Shown here piece by piece: positions 1 through 28,309 of a stretch of 53,998 nucleotides of DNA (position 1 is its first letter; each line of letters starts with the position of its first letter). The stretch comes from Escherichia phage vB_EcoM_DE15: the sequence record NC_079184.1, one strand, 5' to 3'. A program made the translations under genes and the position numbers. Below the pieces are notes generated by a model. It saw only the letters and a list, made by a program, of their open reading frames with translations, was not told the DNA's origin and made no database searches.

Positions 1-88
1 CGATTATATGCGAGAAGAGATTCGATGCGTTAGCGTCGTTTCTCTTTGAGCTAGAATAAGACAAGTAAATTAAATATTTATTTATTCC

Positions 89-101
89 CAATATTGCTAC
101 A
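89..101 (+). repeat. CAATATTGCTACA motif copy 1 (palindromic CAATATTG core)
   Basis: Exact 13-mer repeated at 291-303, and 12/13 at 3238-3250. Preceded by an AT-rich tract. Confidence 0.8.
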
Positions 102-151
102 ATATTAAGAGTAATATTAGGAATGCGTAAAGTTAAAACCAAATGGTACAT

Positions 152-224
152 GGTCGGTCAACTGTATCTCCTTCGGAGAAGGTACTTGGACCAATCTTCG
201 TTCACGGTCGGTCAGCTGTATCTC
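152..224 (+). repeat. 19-nt direct repeat pair GGTCGGTCA(A/G)CTGTATCTC
   Basis: Copies at 152-170 and 206-224 match at 18/19 positions. The first is followed by the small hairpin TCTCC-TTC-GGAGA. Confidence 0.8.
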
Positions 225-290
225 GCCGAAATTTGTTCGAACAGAAGTCCGACTATGAAATAATTTTTTTATAATTTTTTTTTTATTTTT

Positions 291-303
291 CAATATTGCT
301 ACA
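291..303 (+). repeat. CAATATTGCTACA motif copy 2
   Basis: Exact copy of 89-101, preceded by a T-rich tract. TTGCTA (296-301) plus a 15-nt spacer plus TAGAAT (317-322) is weakly sigma70-like. Confidence 0.8.
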
Positions 304-310
304 GAATTAA

Positions 311-388
311 TGAGACTAGAATTCGTAACAAAGCTACGAGACTCGAATTGTTTCAATATTAACGAGACTCAATCTGTGACAATATTAT
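311..388 (+). repeat. Three degenerate 26-bp tandem repeats, each starting (T/C)GAGACT
   Basis: Units at 311-336, 337-362 and 363-388. Units 2 and 3 match at 20/26, units 1 and 2 at 15/26. The 11-mer TAACGAGACTC (360-370) recurs at 17311-17321. Confidence 0.7.
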
Positions 389-569
389 AATTTTATTTTT
401 GGGACGGCGAGGAGGGGAAGCCCAACGTCCTATCGGACTTAAAATACGGTCCCTACCCCAACTTTTTCCTACAGCCTATCGGCTTTCAAACAACACCAAG
501 TTAGGCGCTTCGCTTATGGGTCAAGGTCAAAGTCTCCGTGCTGTTGTAACAATGGCACAGGTTTGTGAT

Positions 570-585
570 ATTAGTTGGACGTGAA
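570..585 (+). promoter_or_regulatory. Putative phage-RNAP promoter (ATTAGTTGGACGTGAA) upstream of the RNAP gene
   Basis: Member of the 10-site intergenic + strand family with consensus ATTAGTTGGATNTGAA. Confidence 0.55.
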
Positions 586-651
586 TTGTGTAATGGCTAC
601 GCTATTATAATCCGTTTCAGTTAAATCATACACAATCTTGGAGACTTACAA

Positions 652-2592
652 ATGACTACTATCACCACTCAAACTATCAAATCCGTTGTTCCTGCTATCA
701 CTGCTCTGGTATACCGTGCCAAAGAGAAACAGAACTATATGCAGCCTCAGACTTGTGCTATTGCTGCCTTAGCCATCTTCAAGATGATGACGTCTTTCAC
801 TCGTGATGACGTTGTCCCTGCCATCGCGATGGTTGAACTGGCTTCTGCTTCTATTGCTGATGCCAACCGTTATAACAACGATTTGAAAGCAATGCACTAT
901 GTTGACCCAGCTATCAACCTCATTGGTCTGGCTAAGCACTTTGGCTTCATCACCATGAACGAAGACAAGTCATTCCAACAGACTGACACATGGGTTGAAC
1001 TGGTTACAACCAAAGACACCGCAGTGCCATTCACTGAGCGTGTTACATCTGAATCTCGTCGCAAGCCTTTCGTTAAAGGTGGCAAAGTTAAGCCATCCAA
1101 AACTCTGAAAGCTGCAATCGAATTCCTGCAAGATACTGAGTACCATGTGGAGACTGAGATGGTTCGCATCATCCAGTCCATGCTTGAGCAACGTACTTAT
1201 GGTGGCTTGCAGATGCCAGAAGCAATCCAGACTGAACTTCATGTTTGGAACAATGCTGTAGCAATGATGAATCAGGACACACTGTATTCTGACTACTTTG
1301 CTGACAACCGTGGTCGCCTGTATCATGTAGCATGTGCTGGTCCTAACCCACAATCTTCTGACTTTGCTCGTTGCTTGTATTCTCACAATGTTGAGAACAT
1401 CGTTAAGAAGTTTAACGAAGATGGTTCTACTACCATTGCATACAATATGTTCATGGCAGAACTGGAAGACATTTCCGGTGGTGAATGGTGCACTGCCAAG
1501 CGTTTGACTTATGTTGCTCAGAATCCAGCTGGTTCACTTGCTCGCATGATGAACATGCCTAAAGCTGAACGTCCTTCCAAGCCATTCACTTATGTTCGTC
1601 TGGCTCTGGATTGGTTCAAGTTTGAGACTACAGGTGAATGCGATTCTCGTGTAGGCTTTGGCTTAGATGCTAAATGTTCTGGTACTCAATATCTGGCATT
1701 CATTGCTGGCAATATGGAAATGGCTCGTGCAACAGGTCTGGTTGATTCTGAGACTAAAGCATCTGACCCATACCAGTTGAGTCTTCGTGAACTGTTGAAG
1801 CTGTTGGACAAGTCTTCAATGAAACCATCTCCTGAAATCATGGATGAATTCTTGAATCCGAAAGCTGGTCGTAAGTTTATCAAAACTCCGTACATGGCTA
1901 TTCAATATGGTGGTGGTAAAGCTGCACTAACTGGTTCATCTGACTTCATCAGCTACATGACGGAAGCTCTCCAGATTCCTATGGAGAAAGCTGAGGCATT
2001 TGCTGAACTGTGTGTAGAAGCAATCCATAACGCATTGGGTGCTAAGATTAACATGTTCATTGAGAAAGCTGCTGAGGCTGCATACAACCGTTGTGTTGAA
2101 CTCAACAAAGAGTACATCACATATCGTCACACTGATGGTCAGGTTGTAATGAAGCCTTGCTTCCCATCTCGTGAAATCTGTGAGGCATTCAGCATTCGTG
2201 TTGACAGCCAAACTCGTGTTATCTTTGGTCAGATTCAGGAGAATAAGCCTTGGACCATTCGTGAATCCAACCCAACTAAAGAAGAATTCAAGCGTACTTT
2301 CGTTGTTAACTACATTCAAGGTATTGACGCATTGGTTGCTCGTACTGTTGCAGTTAAAGCTAAAGAAGCTGGTCTTCGTGGTTTCACTTCAATCCACGAT
2401 TGTTTCCGTTGCTGTTTGGCAGATGCTCCACGTATGATGGAAGTTATTCGTGCAGCATATGTTGAAATCTTTGTAACCAACAATCAATTCGAGAATCTGT
2501 CTAAGCAACTTGGTGGCATTCAGATGTATCATGAGAACATCGTAACTGAAGAACTCCTGATGTCTGAACACGCTTACTACTTCTGTCAATAA
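652..2592 (+). CDS. Single-subunit T7-like DNA-directed RNA polymerase, compact (646 aa)
   Basis: Motifs read by eye: DNRGRLYH, GLDAKCSGTQYLA (motif A), KTPYMAIQYGGG (motif B) and SIHDCF (motif C). RBS GGAG at 640-643. Confidence 0.9.
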   Translation: MTTITTQTIKSVVPAITALVYRAKEKQNYMQPQTCAIAALAIFKMMTSFTRDDVVPAIAMVELASASIADANRYNNDLKAMHYVDPAINLIGLAKHFGFITMNEDKSFQQTDTWVELVTTKDTAVPFTERVTSESRRKPFVKGGKVKPSKTLKAAIEFLQDTEYHVETEMVRIIQSMLEQRTYGGLQMPEAIQTELHVWNNAVAMMNQDTLYSDYFADNRGRLYHVACAGPNPQSSDFARCLYSHNVENIVKKFNEDGSTTIAYNMFMAELEDISGGEWCTAKRLTYVAQNPAGSLARMMNMPKAERPSKPFTYVRLALDWFKFETTGECDSRVGFGLDAKCSGTQYLAFIAGNMEMARATGLVDSETKASDPYQLSLRELLKLLDKSSMKPSPEIMDEFLNPKAGRKFIKTPYMAIQYGGGKAALTGSSDFISYMTEALQIPMEKAEAFAELCVEAIHNALGAKINMFIEKAAEAAYNRCVELNKEYITYRHTDGQVVMKPCFPSREICEAFSIRVDSQTRVIFGQIQENKPWTIRESNPTKEEFKRTFVVNYIQGIDALVARTVAVKAKEAGLRGFTSIHDCFRCCLADAPRMMEVIRAAYVEIFVTNNQFENLSKQLGGIQMYHENIVTEELLMSEHAYYFCQ

Positions 2593-2599
2593 GAGAAAC

Positions 2600-2630
2600 A
2601 GGGCTGGCAATAGCTGGCCCTATTCTTGTT
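2600..2630 (+). terminator. Hairpin plus T-rich tail after the RNAP gene
   Basis: 9-bp stem 2600-2608/2613-2621 (2 G-U pairs), loop AATA, then TATTCTTGTT. Confidence 0.5.
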
Positions 2631-2695
2631 CATCAACAACTAAATCCCAATATTCAAGCAATATTGCTGCATGTAATATTGCTCCGATATTCGAC

Positions 2696-2711
2696 ATTAG
2701 TTGGATATGAA
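2696..2711 (+). promoter_or_regulatory. Putative phage-RNAP promoter (ATTAGTTGGATATGAA)
   Basis: Consensus family member, about 75 nt after the RNAP-gene terminator. Confidence 0.55.
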
Positions 2712-3237
2712 GTAAAAGAATACGGAGAAATATTCCGCATGTCATGTTGAATCATTCTAGAAACATTCAGCATGTCAGCTTTGAGTTACAGCGTTGTAAT
2801 GATGTGGCAATCATTGAACTCCCTGGGAAGGCCACCTATAGTTCCAGCAACCATGACTTAGAGTAGGAATATCTATCCGAAACTTGGACTTCATTGTAGT
2901 TTGGTGTGCTTCATCGTGAGAAAGGTTGTGATAACTTTCGTAAGCAGGTGTTGAACTAACAACAGAACATCGTGTTAGCCATCTTGATTAAGTTACAAGA
3001 AAGTCAACAAATCAGCATGTCTATTAGTAACAATCTTGTTCCTTCTCCTATTATCAAGGCCCACCCACAAGCCGGGAGATAACTTTGACAAGACTGGAAC
3101 TTTTGGACATGCTTCTTTCTTTCTACAAGAATTCGAAAGAAGAGAAGAGTCGGAGCAAAGCCGCGAAACTAATCCCGTAGCCCGCCCCCGATTTTGAGCA
3201 ACAAATATTGTGACAATTGCGTCGCAGTATGGCATGT

Positions 3238-3250
3238 AAATATTGCTACA
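3238..3250 (+). repeat. AAATATTGCTACA, third copy of the left-end 12-mer
   Basis: AATATTGCTACA is identical to 90-101 and 292-303. It directly follows a GCATGT motif. Confidence 0.8.
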
Positions 3251-3672
3251 AATTGGCATGTTGGAATGTGGCAGAATTGTTAGAGGACTAATCACCTCGA
3301 AGATACAATCGTCTACCAATCTGGCATGTTAATTTTGTAACAGTATTTGTGCCAATTTCGCATGTAATAGTTGTATCAGTATTGACCCAATATTCTTGCA
3401 ACCCGCATGAATACTGGCTTCCAGCCAAGCGAAGGCTTTATCATCGCATGTAATATTGTGACAATATTGGGATAAAACCCTTTATTTAAATCATTTAGTT
3501 TATTAATTAAATGGTCGGTTTTCTGTACATAGGTATTCAACTGTTTGTGCCAAATACAAACAAGTTGGCTGCTTCTACAGAACTCCAGTGCTACAAATGT
3601 TCGTGCCAATCTGCTGCAATTTATCTCATTTGGCGGGGTAATATTGTATTAGGTTGGTACGTCATTATTTCG

Positions 3673-3688
3673 ATTAGTTGCATGTGAA
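3673..3688 (+). promoter_or_regulatory. Putative phage-RNAP promoter (ATTAGTTGCATGTGAA), a hybrid with the GCATGT motif
   Basis: 15/16 match to the consensus. It contains the last GCATGT of the array. Confidence 0.5.
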
Positions 3689-3838
3689 TAAGACCAAATC
3701 TCTGTAAATTCTGTGACAGATTTTAGAGAGATTATGTCTCCAAGCTAATCATTGTAGTTCTTCGGCACTTAATGTGTCACATATATAGCCTGTGAAAAAC
3801 GTGTGGTTTATTGCTGGATTGCAACGCGCCCACCAGAC

Positions 3839-3949
3839 TAGGGAGTCCGTGATGGCGGCACACAGGAATACTATATAACTCCCTACAACTTTAAGGTGGA
3901 TTGAGGTAAGACAAGACCTCCACAATCGTTCTGTAGGGAGTTTTCTTTA
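3839..3949 (+). promoter_or_regulatory. Leader with mutually exclusive pairings, terminator-like
   Basis: AACTCCCTACA (3877-3887) can pair with TGTAGGGAGTT (3932-3942, 11 bp, followed by TTTTCTTTA). Alternatively it can pair with the upstream TAGGGAGT (3839-3846, 8 bp). Confidence 0.4.
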
Positions 3950-3964
3950 ACTTGGGAGAATAAA

Positions 3965-4213
3965 ATGGATACTGTGACTAAAGCTGCTTACTTTAAAGAC
4001 TTGTCAGATGGTCAAATATTTTCTATTCGCTCTGTAAAGTGGATTAAAGTAAATGAATCAGACAAGTACAATGCTGTAAAGTTCTTTGATTCAAGCAAGG
4101 CATGTACTTTTAGTGACAATATTGTTGTAAATATTGAAGTCGAATTAGAGCCAGATGATTCAAATGATGAAATCATTCTGCGTAAAACTGTTGGATACAC
4201 TAAAGGATTCTGA
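3965..4213 (+). CDS. Hypothetical early protein (82 aa)
   Basis: ORF with RBS GGGAGA at 3954-3959. First gene after the ORF-free array. Confidence 0.6.
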   Translation: MDTVTKAAYFKDLSDGQIFSIRSVKWIKVNESDKYNAVKFFDSSKACTFSDNIVVNIEVELEPDDSNDEIILRKTVGYTKGF

Positions 4214-4214
4214 A

Positions 4215-4445
4215 ATGGATTATGCACTGTATCACTATATAAGCAGGACTGGGCTTGTTCGTCACGCTTTGGTCAACATTAAAACCAAAGACATACTGTT
4301 GGCTGGCTTGTCAATTTACGAAAACAATTTAGTATGGAAACGTGCTGTACATCCTGGACATGTTTGGGATGTAATTCAGTCTGACAAATACCACAAAATT
4401 GTTGCAATGGCTAACCGACCAGAGCACATCAAGCCGAGGAAATAA
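4215..4445 (+). CDS. Hypothetical protein (76 aa)
   Basis: ATG at 4215, two nt after the upstream stop. In frame with track ORF 4155-4445. Confidence 0.55.
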   Translation: MDYALYHYISRTGLVRHALVNIKTKDILLAGLSIYENNLVWKRAVHPGHVWDVIQSDKYHKIVAMANRPEHIKPRK

Positions 4446-4447
4446 TC

Positions 4448-4636
4448 ATGGACTTCATCGTCTACTTTAAGTTAAATGGTGTAGAGCAAAGTTTGTACTT
4501 CAATTCTTTACTTCGTTTGCAACAGTGGGCGGAGAAGTTTGTTGGTTACGACTTTGATTACATCAATGCATGTACAACTGACGAACATGAGGAAATCGTG
4601 TTCAGTTCTTTAAATCAAATTCTGGAGGCCAAGTGA
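4448..4636 (+). CDS. Hypothetical protein (62 aa)
   Basis: Tightly packed ORF. Confidence 0.55.
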   Translation: MDFIVYFKLNGVEQSLYFNSLLRLQQWAEKFVGYDFDYINACTTDEHEEIVFSSLNQILEAK

Positions 4637-4824
4637 AGAGCAAGATTCTTAAGTCAGCAATGTATAATCTGCATTTCGGACTCAGCTACCCTACAGTAAA
4701 GCGTCAAGAGAAACGATTTTCACGACTACCTGCACGGACTGTTGCCAAAGAGGTTAAGAAGGCGAGCGAGATTCTAAAGTTCGTTATGTGGAAACGTGTT
4801 GTATTAACTCCGGAGACCAAATGA
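4633..4824 (+). CDS. Hypothetical small basic protein (63 aa)
   Basis: GTG start overlapping the upstream stop. Shares the PAR.VAK.V motif with ORF 5084-5248. Confidence 0.5.
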   Translation: MKSKILKSAMYNLHFGLSYPTVKRQEKRFSRLPARTVAKEVKKASEILKFVMWKRVVLTPETK

Positions 4825-5087
4825 GCCAGTTTAAGTTAAAAGCAGATTTAATCGAGTTGGCCTCTTATGAAGAGAAAATCGAATTCATCCAAGAACGTTT
4901 GGTTGTCAACTACGGTGGTTGGATTGATGTTTCTACAAATGAGTTGGTGGTTCGTATCAAGGAAGAGTTTGGTATTGAAATCACTAACAAACAGTTTTAT
5001 GAAGATGTTCTCACAGATAAAGTTATTCGAGGCATCACAAACAATTTCATGTCCAGCTTTATGGAAGGTGGGCCACGTTTAAAATGA
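4821..5087 (+). CDS. Hypothetical protein (88 aa)
   Basis: ATG at 4821 in an ATGA overlap. RBS GGAG at 4812-4815. Confidence 0.6.
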   Translation: MSQFKLKADLIELASYEEKIEFIQERLVVNYGGWIDVSTNELVVRIKEEFGIEITNKQFYEDVLTDKVIRGITNNFMSSFMEGGPRLK

Positions 5088-5248
5088 AGAAGCTCAAATA
5101 TATGACCAAAACGGTTACATATATGGCTATGTATGGTGCTTCAAAGCGTAAGGCTAAGAAATTGGCAAGAGCTGCAAATCCTCGTATGCCAGCACGTAAA
5201 GTGGCCAAAATCGTTAATCTGGTATTTGGCAATTGGAGTATTAAGTGA
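5084..5248 (+). CDS. Hypothetical small basic protein (54 aa)
   Basis: Hand-translated as MKKLKYMTKTV...PARKVAKIVNLVFGNWSIK. ATGA overlap with the upstream gene. Below the track size cut-off. Confidence 0.4.
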   Translation: MKKLKYMTKTVTYMAMYGASKRKAKKLARAANPRMPARKVAKIVNLVFGNWSIK

Positions 5249-5427
5249 ATTATGAGAATCTGCTATTAAGAACTAGTGGTGGGATGCTCATACTGACCAC
5301 ACCTGAGTTTCATTTCACAAGGGTATACTCCGAAGAATTTAAATCCTGGTTCCCAGCAAATCTAAAAACACGATGGCTTAAAGATTGTGTGCCTGTTGGG
5401 AAGAATGTAAAGCTAAGGAGTAAATAA
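5245..5427 (+). CDS. Hypothetical protein (60 aa)
   Basis: GTG start overlapping the upstream stop. Confidence 0.4.
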   Translation: MNYENLLLRTSGGMLILTTPEFHFTRVYSEEFKSWFPANLKTRWLKDCVPVGKNVKLRSK

Positions 5428-5600
5428 TGAACGACCAGCAATTCAACACATTCATGCAGCAAATTAATCATCAAGAACTGATGGATGCCATTAAAGGCAA
5501 GAAGCCAGTCGAACGTCAATATCGTAAAATTGATAATTATATGCCAACAATCATTGCATGTGTTGGTGTTGCTATTGTTCTCTACTTCCTGGTGAAATAA
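5427..5600 (+). CDS. Hypothetical protein with C-terminal transmembrane segment (57 aa)
   Basis: Hand-translated as MNDQQFN...PTIIACVGVAIVLYFLVK. Confidence 0.45.
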   Translation: MNDQQFNTFMQQINHQELMDAIKGKKPVERQYRKIDNYMPTIIACVGVAIVLYFLVK

Positions 5601-5686
5601 TGTCGATTGCTAAGAAACTGTTATTCTGTATCGTAATGTTCCCTATGGTGCTGCTCGTTGTGGGCAGCTTCATGTACTTAAACTAA
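5600..5686 (+). CDS. Possible 28-aa membrane peptide
   Basis: Hand-translated as MSIAKKLLFCIVMFPMVLLVVGSFMYLN. The start overlaps the upstream stop. Confidence 0.3.
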   Translation: MSIAKKLLFCIVMFPMVLLVVGSFMYLN

Positions 5687-5695
5687 GGTAATTAA

Positions 5696-6004
5696 ATGGC
5701 TTCTTTACTCGAATTCTCAAATATTGCAAATGTTGCTAAGAATTCTATTCCGGAAAATCCGGACGTAATTGCGTACATGCGTGTTGATGTAAGTTTGTTA
5801 GCTTTTGTAATGGACCACATCAACCTTGTTGAAGCGCAGTTATCTCAGTCTTACGAAACAGTTGACACTCTTCGTGGACTTCGTACAGCAGAGCAACAGG
5901 CTTATGCTGACCTCATGGAGCAAAAGAACAAGCTCCAAGAACAACTGGCAGACGCACTTCAACAAATTGAAGACATGAAGCCACCAGCAGAATCAACCAA
6001 ATAA
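5696..6004 (+). CDS. Hypothetical protein, coiled-coil C-terminal half (102 aa)
   Basis: ORF with RBS AAGG upstream. Confidence 0.6.
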   Translation: MASLLEFSNIANVAKNSIPENPDVIAYMRVDVSLLAFVMDHINLVEAQLSQSYETVDTLRGLRTAEQQAYADLMEQKNKLQEQLADALQQIEDMKPPAESTK

Positions 6005-27514: not shown

Positions 27515-27721
27515 ATGTTAGAACAGTTGGAAGAACTTCTTTCACATCTTAATGCGGAAGATAACGAAATGGCCTTAGAGTTTAAGGCCAAGTTGAAACA
27601 ACTCCAGGATAAAGCAGACAAAGATGCCTTGTGGCGTGAGTGTCTGGTATCCGGTGGAGTTGATAATTGGTCCTGGTATTCCGAATCCCTTCAGGAGTAT
27701 TGGGACACCTACGGCTATTAA
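27515..27721 (+). CDS. Hypothetical protein (68 aa)
   Basis: RBS GGAG at 27506-27509. Confidence 0.6.
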   Translation: MLEQLEELLSHLNAEDNEMALEFKAKLKQLQDKADKDALWRECLVSGGVDNWSWYSESLQEYWDTYGY

Positions 27722-28123: not shown

Positions 28124-28309
28124 ATGCGCACAATACAATGTCCTAACTGCCATTATGAAATTGCAGAAGATGATTTCATAACGCAACAATGTCCTATCTG
28201 TGATTCATATATGCCACTAAACCGCCTGTATTTAAAGGCCGATTCTGGTTTAGGCAGCATCATTCGCATCAATCCCGTGCAAACTCAGCCATTAGTGGAT
28301 TGTGATTAA
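28124..28309 (+). CDS. Small zinc-ribbon protein (61 aa)
   Basis: CPNCHY and CPICDS pairs. RBS GGAG at 28113-28116. Lies directly upstream of the terminase gene. Confidence 0.6.
   Translation: MRTIQCPNCHYEIAEDDFITQQCPICDSYMPLNRLYLKADSGLGSIIRINPVQTQPLVDCD

Follow-up and report, generated by a model that had tools for sequence, protein, structure and literature searches.

Phages of the family Chaseviridae combine a myovirus body with a T7-like RNA polymerase. In phage T7, transcripts carry RNase III processing hairpins (e.g., R1.1 after gene 1), and the primary replication origin lies downstream of the polymerase gene, where tandem phage promoters are followed by an AT-rich segment. Polymerases of the T7 type need a binding element at -17 to -5, and the T7 concatemer junction carries a class II signal, a short, oriented element of the non-template strand (PMC11617373). 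As for the Chaseviridae, the ICTV profile lists their promoters as still unidentified (PMC12842549), and a GJ1-type promoter (ATTAGTTGGATGTGAA) is annotated as putative in records EF460875 and OL960574. Another described system is the injection-stop region (iss) of phage T5. The first-expressed genes of this phage are located in a long terminal repeat, and the iss is a large untranslated stretch at the inner end of that repeat, containing repeats, inverted repeats and palindromes (bioRxiv 10.1101/866236).

Escherichia phage vB_EcoM_DE15 is a phiEcoM-GJ1-like phage (Carltongylesvirus, Chaseviridae) with all its genes on the + strand. In this work, we analysed a window of 53,998 nucleotides (NC_079184.1), focusing on positions 2593-3964, which carry an array of the hexamer GCATGT; no description of this array was found in the searched literature on Chaseviridae and GJ1. 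The region resembles the T5 iss in being untranslated, dense in repeats and palindromes, located at the inner end of a long terminal repeat and conserved among relatives. However, the hallmark of T5 is an ordered set of 8 DnaA boxes, whereas the DE15 region holds two relaxed matches (TTWTNCACA at 3683 and 3791, - strand) with no enrichment (10 in the genome vs 8.8 expected), and its motif follows the phage lineage instead of the host and is accompanied by stems that covary. The predicted DE15 hairpins are in turn comparable to the T7 RNase III hairpins: both form a related family in the transcripts of a phage with a T7-type polymerase, one member lying directly after the polymerase gene, and both consist of long imperfect helices that are strand-specific and have sequence common to the copies. 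The T7 hairpins, however, are spread between genes, whereas several of those predicted in DE15 lie together in a single ORF-free putative leader of 1.3 kb. The DE15 hairpins also differ in having an invariant hexamer on either side, able to pair with itself through wobble pairs, and in spanning the terminal-repeat boundary.

The ORF-free region and its hexamer array

The features mapped in the region are collected in Table 1. The initial annotation had described the region as ORF-free, and indeed just short, unconserved ORFs of at most 108 aa were found; most related records annotate no CDS at the equivalent place. Coding across the most conserved block (3047-3076) was rejected, since an ORF of 53-81 aa covers it in only 6 of 10 representatives, with Y2, mg27, mg28 and Myduc lacking it, and the alignment shows frame-breaking indels directly after the block. 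Start-stop mini-ORFs (AUG UAA) were likewise discarded, being present at under half of the hexamer copies and lacking a ribosome-binding site. The ORF-free region contains no tRNA, and Rfam covariance models gave no match at E <= 1 across positions 1-6000 on either strand. The hairpin at 2657-2683 lies 10 nt upstream of promoter P1. The first ORF (3965) has its ribosome-binding site and start codon immediately after the hairpin at 3869-3948.

Table 1. Features mapped between the RNA polymerase gene and the first ORF of DE15.
Position	Strand	Feature	Basis
2600-2621	+	Terminator-like hairpin with T-rich tail, directly 3' of the RNA polymerase gene (652-2592)	Consensus scan; homologous site in SA91KD annotated as rho-independent terminator
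2657-2683	+	Perfect 9-bp hairpin, AGCAAUAUU / AAUAUUGCU, with 9-nt loop GCUGCAUGU holding hexamer copy 1 (2669)	Sequence reading, folding
2696-2711	+	Phage promoter P1, ATTAGTTGGATATGAA	Homologue of phiEcoM-GJ1 'putative phage promoter 1'; top promoter-matrix score in the genome, 34.6
2737-2775	+	P1-proximal hairpin bracketed by hexamer copies 2 and 3; CAUGUUGAAU (2743-2752) pairs with AUUCAGCAUG (2764-2773)	Folding, comparison
3015-3020	+	Hexamer copy 4	Position conserved, 51 nt before the invariant block
3047-3076	+	Block CCTATTATCAAGGCCCACCCACAAGCCGGG	Most conserved sequence of the region; nearly invariant in 11 aligned genus-level representatives
3147-3151		Inferred right boundary of the direct terminal repeat, purine-rich tract, between GAAAGAAGAGAAG and AGTCGGAGC	Homology to the repeats of relatives
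3229-3353	+	Hairpin HpA, apex with conserved GAGGACUAAUCACCUC GAAGAUAC	Folding, covariation
3405-3468	+	GCATGA (3405), hexamer (3446) and perfect 17-nt palindrome AATATTGTGACAATATT (3452-3468)	Sequence reading, alignment
3478-3515		AT-rich stretch, then box ATGGTCGGTTT	Similar box twice upstream of the left repeat end (~160, ~214)
3596-3666	+	Hairpin HpB, loop AUUUGGC (3628-3634)	Folding, covariation
3673-3688	+	Phage promoter P2, ATTAGTTGCATGTGAA, including the last hexamer (3680)	Promoter-matrix score 29.5
3869-3948	+	Long hairpin CUCCCUACA...UGUAGGGAG, then UUUUCUUU	Sequence reading; conserved in GJ1 and SA91KD

On the + strand, GCATGT occurs at 2669, 2737, 2770, 3015, 3232, 3256, 3324, 3360, 3446 and 3680, with the variant GCATGA at 3405 and a single - strand copy at 3107, as had been counted in the initial annotation against a chance expectation of ~0.25. 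This expectation holds: the remaining 52.6 kb carry 10 + strand copies, from which 0.26 would be expected inside the region (Poisson P 3e-13). The enrichment also stands out against a composition-matched background: 2000 dinucleotide-preserving shuffles of the region gave a mean of 0.58 copies and never more than 5, and just 0.1% of them contained some hexamer, whatever its sequence, in 10 copies. The strand bias of 10:1 gives a binomial p = 0.012 in the DE15 region alone, and among ten genus-level representatives 96 copies lie on the + strand, with next to none on the - strand. We regard the array as oriented, functional and not due to chance.

Its conserved core is limited to 6 nt, with irregular spacings of 22-245 nt. 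The flanks had been described as conserved on both sides; a weak downstream consensus does exist (A at +2, TTG at +5 to +7, CAA at +11 to +13), and upstream the signal is weaker than stated, with no more than 0.37 bit per position over the 96 copies. The palindrome CAATATTG, said to recur at the left end of the genome, is present there at 89 and 291, as well as at 2659, 3462, 4117 and 44138, and 21 of the 32 copies of AATATTG fall within the first 4.2 kb of the window. Most of the genus-level representatives in the alignment keep TTGTGACAATATTGGGA, which varies somewhat in PM1, mg27 and Myduc.

PhageTerm results or sequenced repeats of Mangalitsa, 4HA13, Myduc, Y2 and PM1 gave the repeat ends, and by homology the terminal repeat of DE15 would measure ~2.7 kb, with its left end at ~436-439. 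The invariant 30-nt block sits 73-89 nt before the repeat end, and HpA starts ~80 nt past it. The position of the array astride this boundary, together with AATATTG-type units devoid of GCATGT beyond the opposite end of the repeat (85-391), points to a role at the DNA level too.

Across 20 genomes belonging to at least 7 genera, the hexamers occupy orthologous positions and stay invariant amid diverging flanks. Taking the block at 3047-3076 as positional anchor, they lie at -281, -213, -178, -51, +165, +189, +257, +293, +379, +525, +581 and +603, and in 6 genera a hexamer precedes P1 by 28 nt. In the other subfamily, Nefertitivirinae, GTATGA or GTGTGA takes the equivalent place, also oriented and likewise present on both arms of wobble-rich hairpins. 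Aeromonas phage phiA050 carries GCATGT, whereas Aeromonas phages pAh6-C and ZPAH14 carry GTATGA; thus, the hexamer follows the phage lineage and not the host, and Chi-like, restriction-site and host-factor readings were therefore rejected.

Promoters, and the array as a possible protein-binding site or replication origin

P1 and P2 lie 977 nt apart, and sites were scored with a matrix built from the 7 genomic promoter copies (consensus of ~16 nt). The last hexamer had been noted as a hybrid with the promoter consensus, and this site, P2, is in fact among the 7 best consensus matches in the genome. Conversely, the segment 2761-2775, claimed to resemble the upstream half of the promoter, has a log-odds score of -18.6. 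The initial annotation had offered a second promoter class or a polymerase sink as explanations of the array, and the hexamers might also act as class II-like pause signals on the non-template strand. Their orientation is that of transcription, the sequence is one base from the promoter core GGATGT and identical to the core of P2 in all genera, and it differs between subfamilies whose polymerases are only ~35% identical. Nevertheless, 10 of 11 hexamer sites score negatively (-6.5 to -24.2), the exception being 3680; these ten lack the ATTAGTT binding half, and the promoter tolerates G/C/A, T/C and G/A/T at positions that are invariant in the array, so that the hexamer is more constrained than the matching promoter positions. 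Furthermore, the nearly information-free upstream side offers nothing like the extended binding element. The class II signal is likewise short and oriented, and it lies beside the terminal repeat of a phage whose polymerase has a single subunit (PMC11617373). The array, however, differs in sequence from the ATCTGTT type and has many copies instead of one, placed in covarying hairpins, while class II signals lack structure. The U-run that class II signals require (PMC11617373) does not follow the hexamer, and the next base is seldom G. These polymerase-based readings are thus very improbable. Matches to sigma-70 promoters (11 sites vs 11.4 expected, none tied to hexamers) and units resembling -35, extended -10 or MotA boxes, sought by eye and showing no consistent spacing, were discarded.

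An operator array had also been suggested. GCATGT, TGTGACA and AATATT on either flank of the repeat would then be double-stranded sites for a lineage-specific, phage-encoded protein (such as a small terminase, an architectural protein or a repressor). Bound there, this protein would either regulate P1 and P2 or set where the repeat ends are cut and packaged. Palindromic modules such as these units are typical of sites for dimeric DNA-binding proteins. The array spans the repeat boundary in five Cleopatravirinae and in ZPAH14, AATATTG/TGTNACA units recur 50-350 bp outside the left repeat end, and the hexamer type is specific to the subfamily irrespective of the host; protein contact predicts the invariance of the hexamer. 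Indels between orthologous hexamers advance in steps of 10-12 bp (24 vs 34-36; 25 vs 35), and the periodogram of hexamer spacings peaks at ~10.75-11 bp, a suggestive helical periodicity on which we do not rely, as the test pools related sequences and leaves a constant remainder of ~2 nt; the spacings themselves are irregular. However, all 96 copies show a strict G...T asymmetry that a dimer bound to a CATG-core palindrome could do without, and a protein array predicts neither compensatory changes in stems adjacent to the hexamers nor the compensatory replacement of both hexamers in HpB of DE15. Around the large terminase gene and in the first early ORFs, we recognised no candidate for a small terminase or a helix-turn-helix protein: a PHROGs search with three ORFs directly preceding that gene and with the six earliest early ORFs returned no DNA-binding or small-terminase match. 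Nor does the array consist of regular 12-22 bp direct repeats beside a binding-protein gene, as iterons or operators do, and no initiator or repressor gene was recognised. Overall, we consider a protein-binding array unlikely.

A T7-like primary origin, the remaining suggestion of the initial annotation, would start DNA synthesis at the AT-rich stretch 3478-3515, primed by transcripts of P1 or P2, the repeats being accessory. The region follows the polymerase gene as the T7 origin does, it contains two phage promoters and an AT-rich stretch, and no initiator gene is annotated. Yet the promoters are 1 kb apart instead of tandem, the AT-rich stretch lies 770 nt from P1 and upstream of P2, and the hexamers would be left unexplained; the segment 12346-12640, with three promoter-like sites and a 25% GC stretch, is nearer to the T7 layout and is the better candidate. 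We consider a primary origin at 3478-3515 improbable.

Predicted hairpins bracketed by the hexamer

In comparisons of predicted folds, hexamer-bracketed hairpins (2737/2770, 3256/3324 and the +526/+582 pair) are conserved across genera, with compensatory changes in the adjacent stems. The P1-proximal hairpin is kept in GJ1, SA91KD, PYps23T, 4HA13, mg25, PM1, PP101 and Y2 with differing inner sequences, including a coordinated one-base insertion in both arms (GAAU:AUUC to GAAAU:AUUUC).

In HpA, the hexamer at 3256 pairs with that at 3324 at a constant spacing of 66-69 nt, next to covarying stems, and the minimum-energy fold pairs hexamers +190 and +258 in all 11 genus-level representatives. It is flanked by the hexamers at 3232 and 3360, whose counterparts in Y2, mg27 and Myduc pair into an outer hexamer:hexamer helix. 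An alignment of 20 sequences covering 29 pairs has 94.9% of its cells paired, a share that drops to 31-45% on sliding the 3' partners, and both sides change in 12 pairs, compared with 6.0 +/- 1.3 in shuffled controls (0 of 500 reached 12) and 1-4 in slid ones; column 109:158, for example, is GC in 10 sequences, AU in 8 and CG in 1. In each of the 20 genomes, the + strand of HpA gives a more stable fold than the - strand (-49.0 vs -33.6 kcal/mol).

Most relatives close HpB with a GCAUGU:GCAUGU helix (anchor pair +526/+582). In DE15 both arms are altered in a compensatory manner, CGUGCCAA pairing with UUGGUACG, and the hexamers are likewise replaced in Faunus. Covariation was counted on ungapped, loop-centred windows, as the MAFFT alignment had misplaced the Loessnervirus group: the six loop-proximal pairs are formed in 96 of 102 cells (42-45 of 102 when slid), the first three are paired in 17 of 17 sequences, each with 4-5 pair types, around an invariant loop, A(U/A)U(U/C)GGC. 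Thus, compensatory changes in both HpA and HpB exceed the controls, as expected of conserved structured RNA. The predicted lower helix of HpA (~27 pairs with bulges) and that of HpB in GJ1 (a predicted 17-bp perfect helix) also attain the ~two turns of double-stranded RNA of an RNase III site. Folding z-scores were -4.1 for 3190-3480, -3.6 for 3686-3964 and -2.3 for 2710-3150. The advantage of + over - strand folding across the whole region (-4.8 kcal per 100 nt) is not diagnostic of RNA, as coding controls are equally asymmetric (-2.7 to -5.4).

The same hairpins could instead form in displaced + strand DNA during transcription or replication, serving replication priming or the duplication and processing of the repeat in concatemers. 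Single-strand initiation hairpins offer an analogue, and a hairpin intermediate beside the T7 concatemer junction was reportedly proposed by Chung, Nardone and Hinkle in 1990. The structural evidence from HpA and HpB applies equally to such DNA, and under DNA parameters the + strand keeps its folding advantage in 19 of 20 genomes; moreover, HpA begins close to the repeat boundary, whose purine-rich tract, downstream of P1, would favour R-loops, and the replication genes are T7-like (SSB, helicase/primase, DNA polymerase) with no initiator protein annotated. On the other hand, G.U pairs make up 87 of the 523 paired cells of HpA (17%), including both ends of each hexamer duplex, and the corresponding G.T pairs are weak in DNA; the energy with DNA parameters is small (-18.6 kcal/mol for 180 nt), and a hairpin lies upstream of every phage promoter in the DE15 genome, which suits elements acting in transcripts. 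Hairpins in single-stranded DNA are for these reasons improbable as the main explanation.

A structured leader RNA as the probable source of the array

Based on the predicted folds, we favour, with a probability of roughly 0.58, that the array marks the paired hairpin arms of a long + strand non-coding RNA transcribed from P1. The T7-like polymerase of the phage would transcribe the ORF-free stretch rightward from P1 (2696) and again from P2 (3673), yielding a highly structured non-coding leader of ~0.95 kb that reaches from P1 to HpB and, starting at P2, a further structured leader of 0.28 kb, and the oriented motifs would be the DNA footprint of this RNA structure. As RNA, GCAUGU is self-complementary through its CAUG core and two closing G.U pairs; copies on both arms of a hairpin therefore appear as direct repeats of one strand only, because the opposite strand would give A.C mismatches. 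AAUAUU and UUGU-N-ACAA are self-complementary modules as well. With P1 directly upstream and no conserved ORF in the region, we infer that the single-stranded molecule is RNA and that the leader originates at P1.

Since a self-complementary hexamer is always predicted to pair, the hexamer:hexamer pairs, which never vary, carry no covariation signal, and their support comes from the neighbouring stems; the copies at 2669 (upstream of P1), 3015, 3232 and 3446 lie outside any covariation-supported helix. Pairing alone also leaves the invariance of the hexamer unexplained, as GCAUGC or ACAUGU would pair equally well or better. The hexamer may be held constant by a factor that reads the G.U-closed duplex in a sequence-specific way, or because each copy has to pair with more than one alternative partner. 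Along the latter line, the hexamers, any of which can pair with any other, could be interchangeable modules that allow the leader to switch folds or to pair between molecules, the RNA or displaced + strand DNA being a cis signal that defines and duplicates the right end of the 2.7-kb repeat in concatemer processing and packaging. A nucleic-acid structure would then mark the end in a long-repeat phage, loosely recalling the phi29 packaging RNA or the hairpin suggested for the T7 concatemer junction. This reading has a slim chance of being correct; if true, it would account for the inability of the hexamers to drift.

Regarding the function of the leader RNA, its long helices (at least 20 bp) may act, by analogy with the T7 RNase III hairpins, as processing or termination and stability elements. 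They would separate the early operon from the polymerase gene and the terminal repeat, and would set the expression level of that operon.

If the leader reading holds, every member of the Chaseviridae would have a ~1-kb structured non-coding RNA, absent from Rfam, located between the terminal repeat with its polymerase gene and the early operon. It would also mean that a one-strand, near-palindromic 'direct repeat' can signal G.U-closed RNA helices instead of protein sites. The three hexamer-bracketed hairpins, the invariant AUUUGGC loop and the invariant 30-nt block would then be targets for mutation, bearing on how the long terminal repeat is defined and on the timing of early expression in a family in which several such phages are used in biocontrol.

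Genome setting and an oriented hexamer array

The window is a phiEcoM-GJ1-like myovirus genome (Carltongylesvirus, Chaseviridae), and a similarity search with bases 2400-4100 matched 79 phage records, SKA49 showing a 90% match over the full length. A record named Staphylococcus phage Pel53 (PP952070.1, host Staphylococcus hyicus) displays ~83% DNA identity to these coliphages; its host label looks doubtful.

In the ORF-free region 3' of the RNA polymerase gene (2593-3964), 0.26 copies of GCATGT would be expected from the rest-of-genome rate (Poisson P = 3e-13), and the 10 copies on the + strand against 1 on the - strand bear out the over-representation and orientation described in the initial annotation. 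When the region was shuffled 2000 times with dinucleotide composition preserved, GCATGT reached at most 5 copies, and 10 copies of any hexamer whatever were seen in 0.1% of the shuffles. Copies of CAATATTG (6 vs 1.4 expected) and AATATTG (32 vs 10.5 expected) concentrate in the first 4.2 kb. No tRNA was present, no Rfam family matched, and sigma-70-like sites showed no excess. Within the first ORF (3965-4213), a further GCATGT followed by TGACAATATTG and AAATATTG was observed at 4100-4136, suggesting that the module grammar of the array may extend into coding sequence.

Features of the window and annotated terminal repeats of related phages
Feature	Position	Strand	Remark
T7-like RNA polymerase ORF	652-2592		646 aa
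Terminator-like hairpin	2600-2621		directly 3' of the RNA polymerase ORF
GCATGT	2669, 2737, 2770, 3015, 3232, 3256, 3324, 3360, 3446, 3680	+	
GCATGT, single opposite-strand copy	3107	-	
GCATGA	3405		
Putative phage promoter copies	570, 2696, 3673, 7829, 8345, 14583, 43081	+	all intergenic
P1-proximal hairpin (predicted)	bracketed by hexamers 2737 and 2770		
HpA (predicted hairpin)	3229-3353		minimum-energy folds and covariation
HpB (predicted hairpin)	3596-3666		+526/+582 in relatives, spacing 55-61
Mangalitsa repeat	1-3234		PhageTerm-annotated
4HA13 repeat	1-3120		PhageTerm-annotated
Myduc repeat	1-3202		PhageTerm-annotated

The + strand hexamers occupy identical positions relative to a nearly invariant 30-nt block (3047-3076) in 20 genomes (Carltongylesvirus, Sabourvirus, Faunusvirus, Suwonvirus, Loessnervirus, Myducvirus, one Aeromonas phage and four metagenomic relatives) whose polymerases are 66-100% identical to that of the window, with almost no - strand copies. 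In an 11-genus alignment, the spacers diverge and the invariant columns fall in the hexamers, in several TGTGACA units and in a few short blocks. In the Nefertitivirinae and relatives, whose polymerases show ~35% identity, an equally long ORF-free gap follows the polymerase gene and carries different one-stranded arrays (GTATGA, 7 vs 0 on the opposite strand; GTGTGA, 8 vs 0). Hexamer type tracks phage lineage rather than host; Aeromonas phages are split by hexamer, phiA050 having GCATGT, and pAh6-C and ZPAH14 GTATGA.

Predicted hairpins organised around the hexamer

As RNA, GCAUGU is self-complementary, with a C-G, A-U, U-A, G-C core closed by two G.U pairs; the opposite-strand ACAUGC is not. 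Three predicted hairpins are organised around this self-pairing: HpA, HpB and one proximal to P1, the promoter at 2696-2711. HpA is a long hairpin enclosing a hexamer pair, with a conserved apex (GAGGACUAAUCACCUC GAAGAUAC); its hexamers, at +190 and +258 from the invariant block, are always 66-69 nt apart and pair in the minimum-energy fold of 11/11 genus-level representatives, and the adjoining stem displays compensatory variants (GACA:UGUC, GACC:GGUC, GCCA:UGGC, GGCA:UGCU). RNAalifold returned 29 pairs on the 20-sequence HpA alignment, in which 94.9% of cells (one pair in one sequence) were paired, compared with 31-45% when 3' partners were slid; 87 of the 523 paired cells were G.U. Twelve pairs had changed on both sides, vs 6.0 +/- 1.3 shuffled (0/500) and 1-4 slid. 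The + strand of HpA folded better than the - strand in 20/20 genomes; the folding strand asymmetry of the whole region was equalled in coding controls.

The loop of HpB, A(U/A)U(U/C)GGC, is invariant. Because the MAFFT alignment of HpB is unreliable, pairing was scored in windows centred on the loop. Stem pairs 1-3 were paired in 17/17 sequences with 4-5 pair types at each, and the six loop-proximal pairs were paired in 96/102 cells (42-45/102 slid). In most genera HpB is closed by a 12-17 bp GCAUGU...GCAUGU helix; in the window and Faunus the hexamers are replaced with pairing retained (CGUGCCAA with UUGGUACG), which explains why the window lacks two hexamer copies present in relatives. The P1-proximal hairpin is retained despite differing inner sequences, and an insertion in one arm is matched by one in the other.

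Whole-leader folds paired 2-10 hexamer cores per genome to another hexamer core, with nested hexamer:hexamer helices in Y2, mg27 and Myduc. Folding z-scores of separate segments were -4.1 (3190-3480), -3.6 (3686-3964) and -2.3 (2710-3150). The hexamer:hexamer pairs are invariant and thus give zero covariation signal of their own, and the spacing periodicity signal rests on pooled related sequences. Wobble-rich hairpins with GUAUGA or GUGUGA copies on each arm are likewise predicted in Nefertitivirinae.

Promoters and a possible origin

A promoter sequence annotated as putative in GJ1 and SA91KD has 7 strong copies in the window, which score 27.6-34.6 with the matrix trained on them. Ten of the 11 hexamer sites scored -6.5 to -24.2, the promoter tolerates several bases where array positions are invariant, and almost no information content is found 5' of the array hexamer; therefore, the array does not consist of GJ1-type promoters, and the proposal of a second promoter class was not borne out for this type. 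The only hexamer site scoring as a promoter (29.5) is 3680, within P2 (3673-3688), confirming that the last copy overlaps a phage promoter.

A stable hairpin lies within ~15 nt 5' of every promoter copy (570, 2696, 3673, 7829, 8345, 12346, 14583, 43081), which suggests terminator-promoter or processing-promoter modules genome-wide. In Aeromonas phage ZPAH14, a hairpin followed by (T)CTATGGTAAC occurs in intergenic regions at 2624, 5253, 8865 and 10990, and may be a terminator-promoter module of that lineage. A promoter-like site at 28291 (score 20.3) lies within the 3' end of a 61-aa zinc-ribbon ORF (28124-28309; CPNC...CPIC) immediately 5' of the large terminase gene, near which no small terminase was recognised; for a 68-aa ORF at 27515-27721, the PHROG hits (E = 5e-8) are families labelled host RecBCD nuclease inhibitor (T7 gp5.9-like).

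A T7-type origin at the array is less likely than one at 12346-12640, since a second ORF-free region (12274-13030) contains promoter-like sites at 12346, 12487 and 12624 and a 25% GC stretch (12420-12470); no other layout in the genome comes as close to that of the T7 primary origin.

The terminal repeat and a proposed structured RNA

In relatives, the window end runs on into the window start, so the record is written as a circle with a single terminal-repeat copy. Repeat ends are consistent among Mangalitsa, 4HA13, Myduc, Y2 (2608 bp) and PM1 (2665 bp), the repeat being found at both record ends in the latter two. By homology, the window would have a direct terminal repeat of ~2.7 kb, its left end probably at 436-439, just 5' of TTAAAATACGGTCCC, and its right end probably at 3147-3151, in a purine-rich tract. 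Ends so placed would put the polymerase gene in virion DNA twice, and 4 hexamers within the repeat with the dense cluster just outside. The invariant block is always 73-89 nt ahead of the right end, and CCTATCGG is present on both sides of the left end. The 3373-bp repeat of ZPAH14 (Shantouvirus, outside Cleopatravirinae) also ends within its own hexamer cluster.

AATATTG-TGNNACA units without GCATGT are found 50-350 bp outside the left end. In this flank (85-391), AATATTGCTACA-type units alternate with GAGACT (3 copies, 25-nt spacing), the genus-specific partner unit being ACGGCTC in PM1 and GATTCG in Y2; T-runs and a perfect TATAAT (386-391) are also present, as well as two GGTCGGT-N-CTGTA boxes (~160, ~214), a third being at 3514. 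The published 2339-bp repeat of Yersinia phage PYps23T has both ends exactly within two ATTAGTTGGA copies (promoters P0 and P1); repeat ends lie elsewhere in four other genera, and those of PYps23T may be a PCR or assembly artefact across the repeated promoter. A TTG-initiated 53-aa ORF (3036-3197) across the invariant block and repeat boundary recurs in 6/10 representatives; as four genera lack it and indels break its frame, it was judged non-coding.

Pairing alone does not account for the absolute invariance of the hexamer or for an array astride the repeat boundary; hence, some weight goes to two other readings, a DNA-level array of protein sites, which we consider unlikely, and + strand single-stranded DNA hairpins serving repeat formation, which appear less probable still. 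A structured + strand RNA encoded by the region is the simplest single account of why the hexamers are oriented on one strand and keep their positions and spacings, why palindromic modules (AAUAUU; UUGU-N-ACAA) are present, why an ORF is lacking, and why evolution has been compensatory. P1, at the 5' side, would produce this transcript, with HpB and a hairpin plus U-run at 3869-3948 as candidate 3' or processing elements. We infer that the folded molecule is RNA, a product of P1, whose helices would act like the RNase III or stability hairpins of T7.
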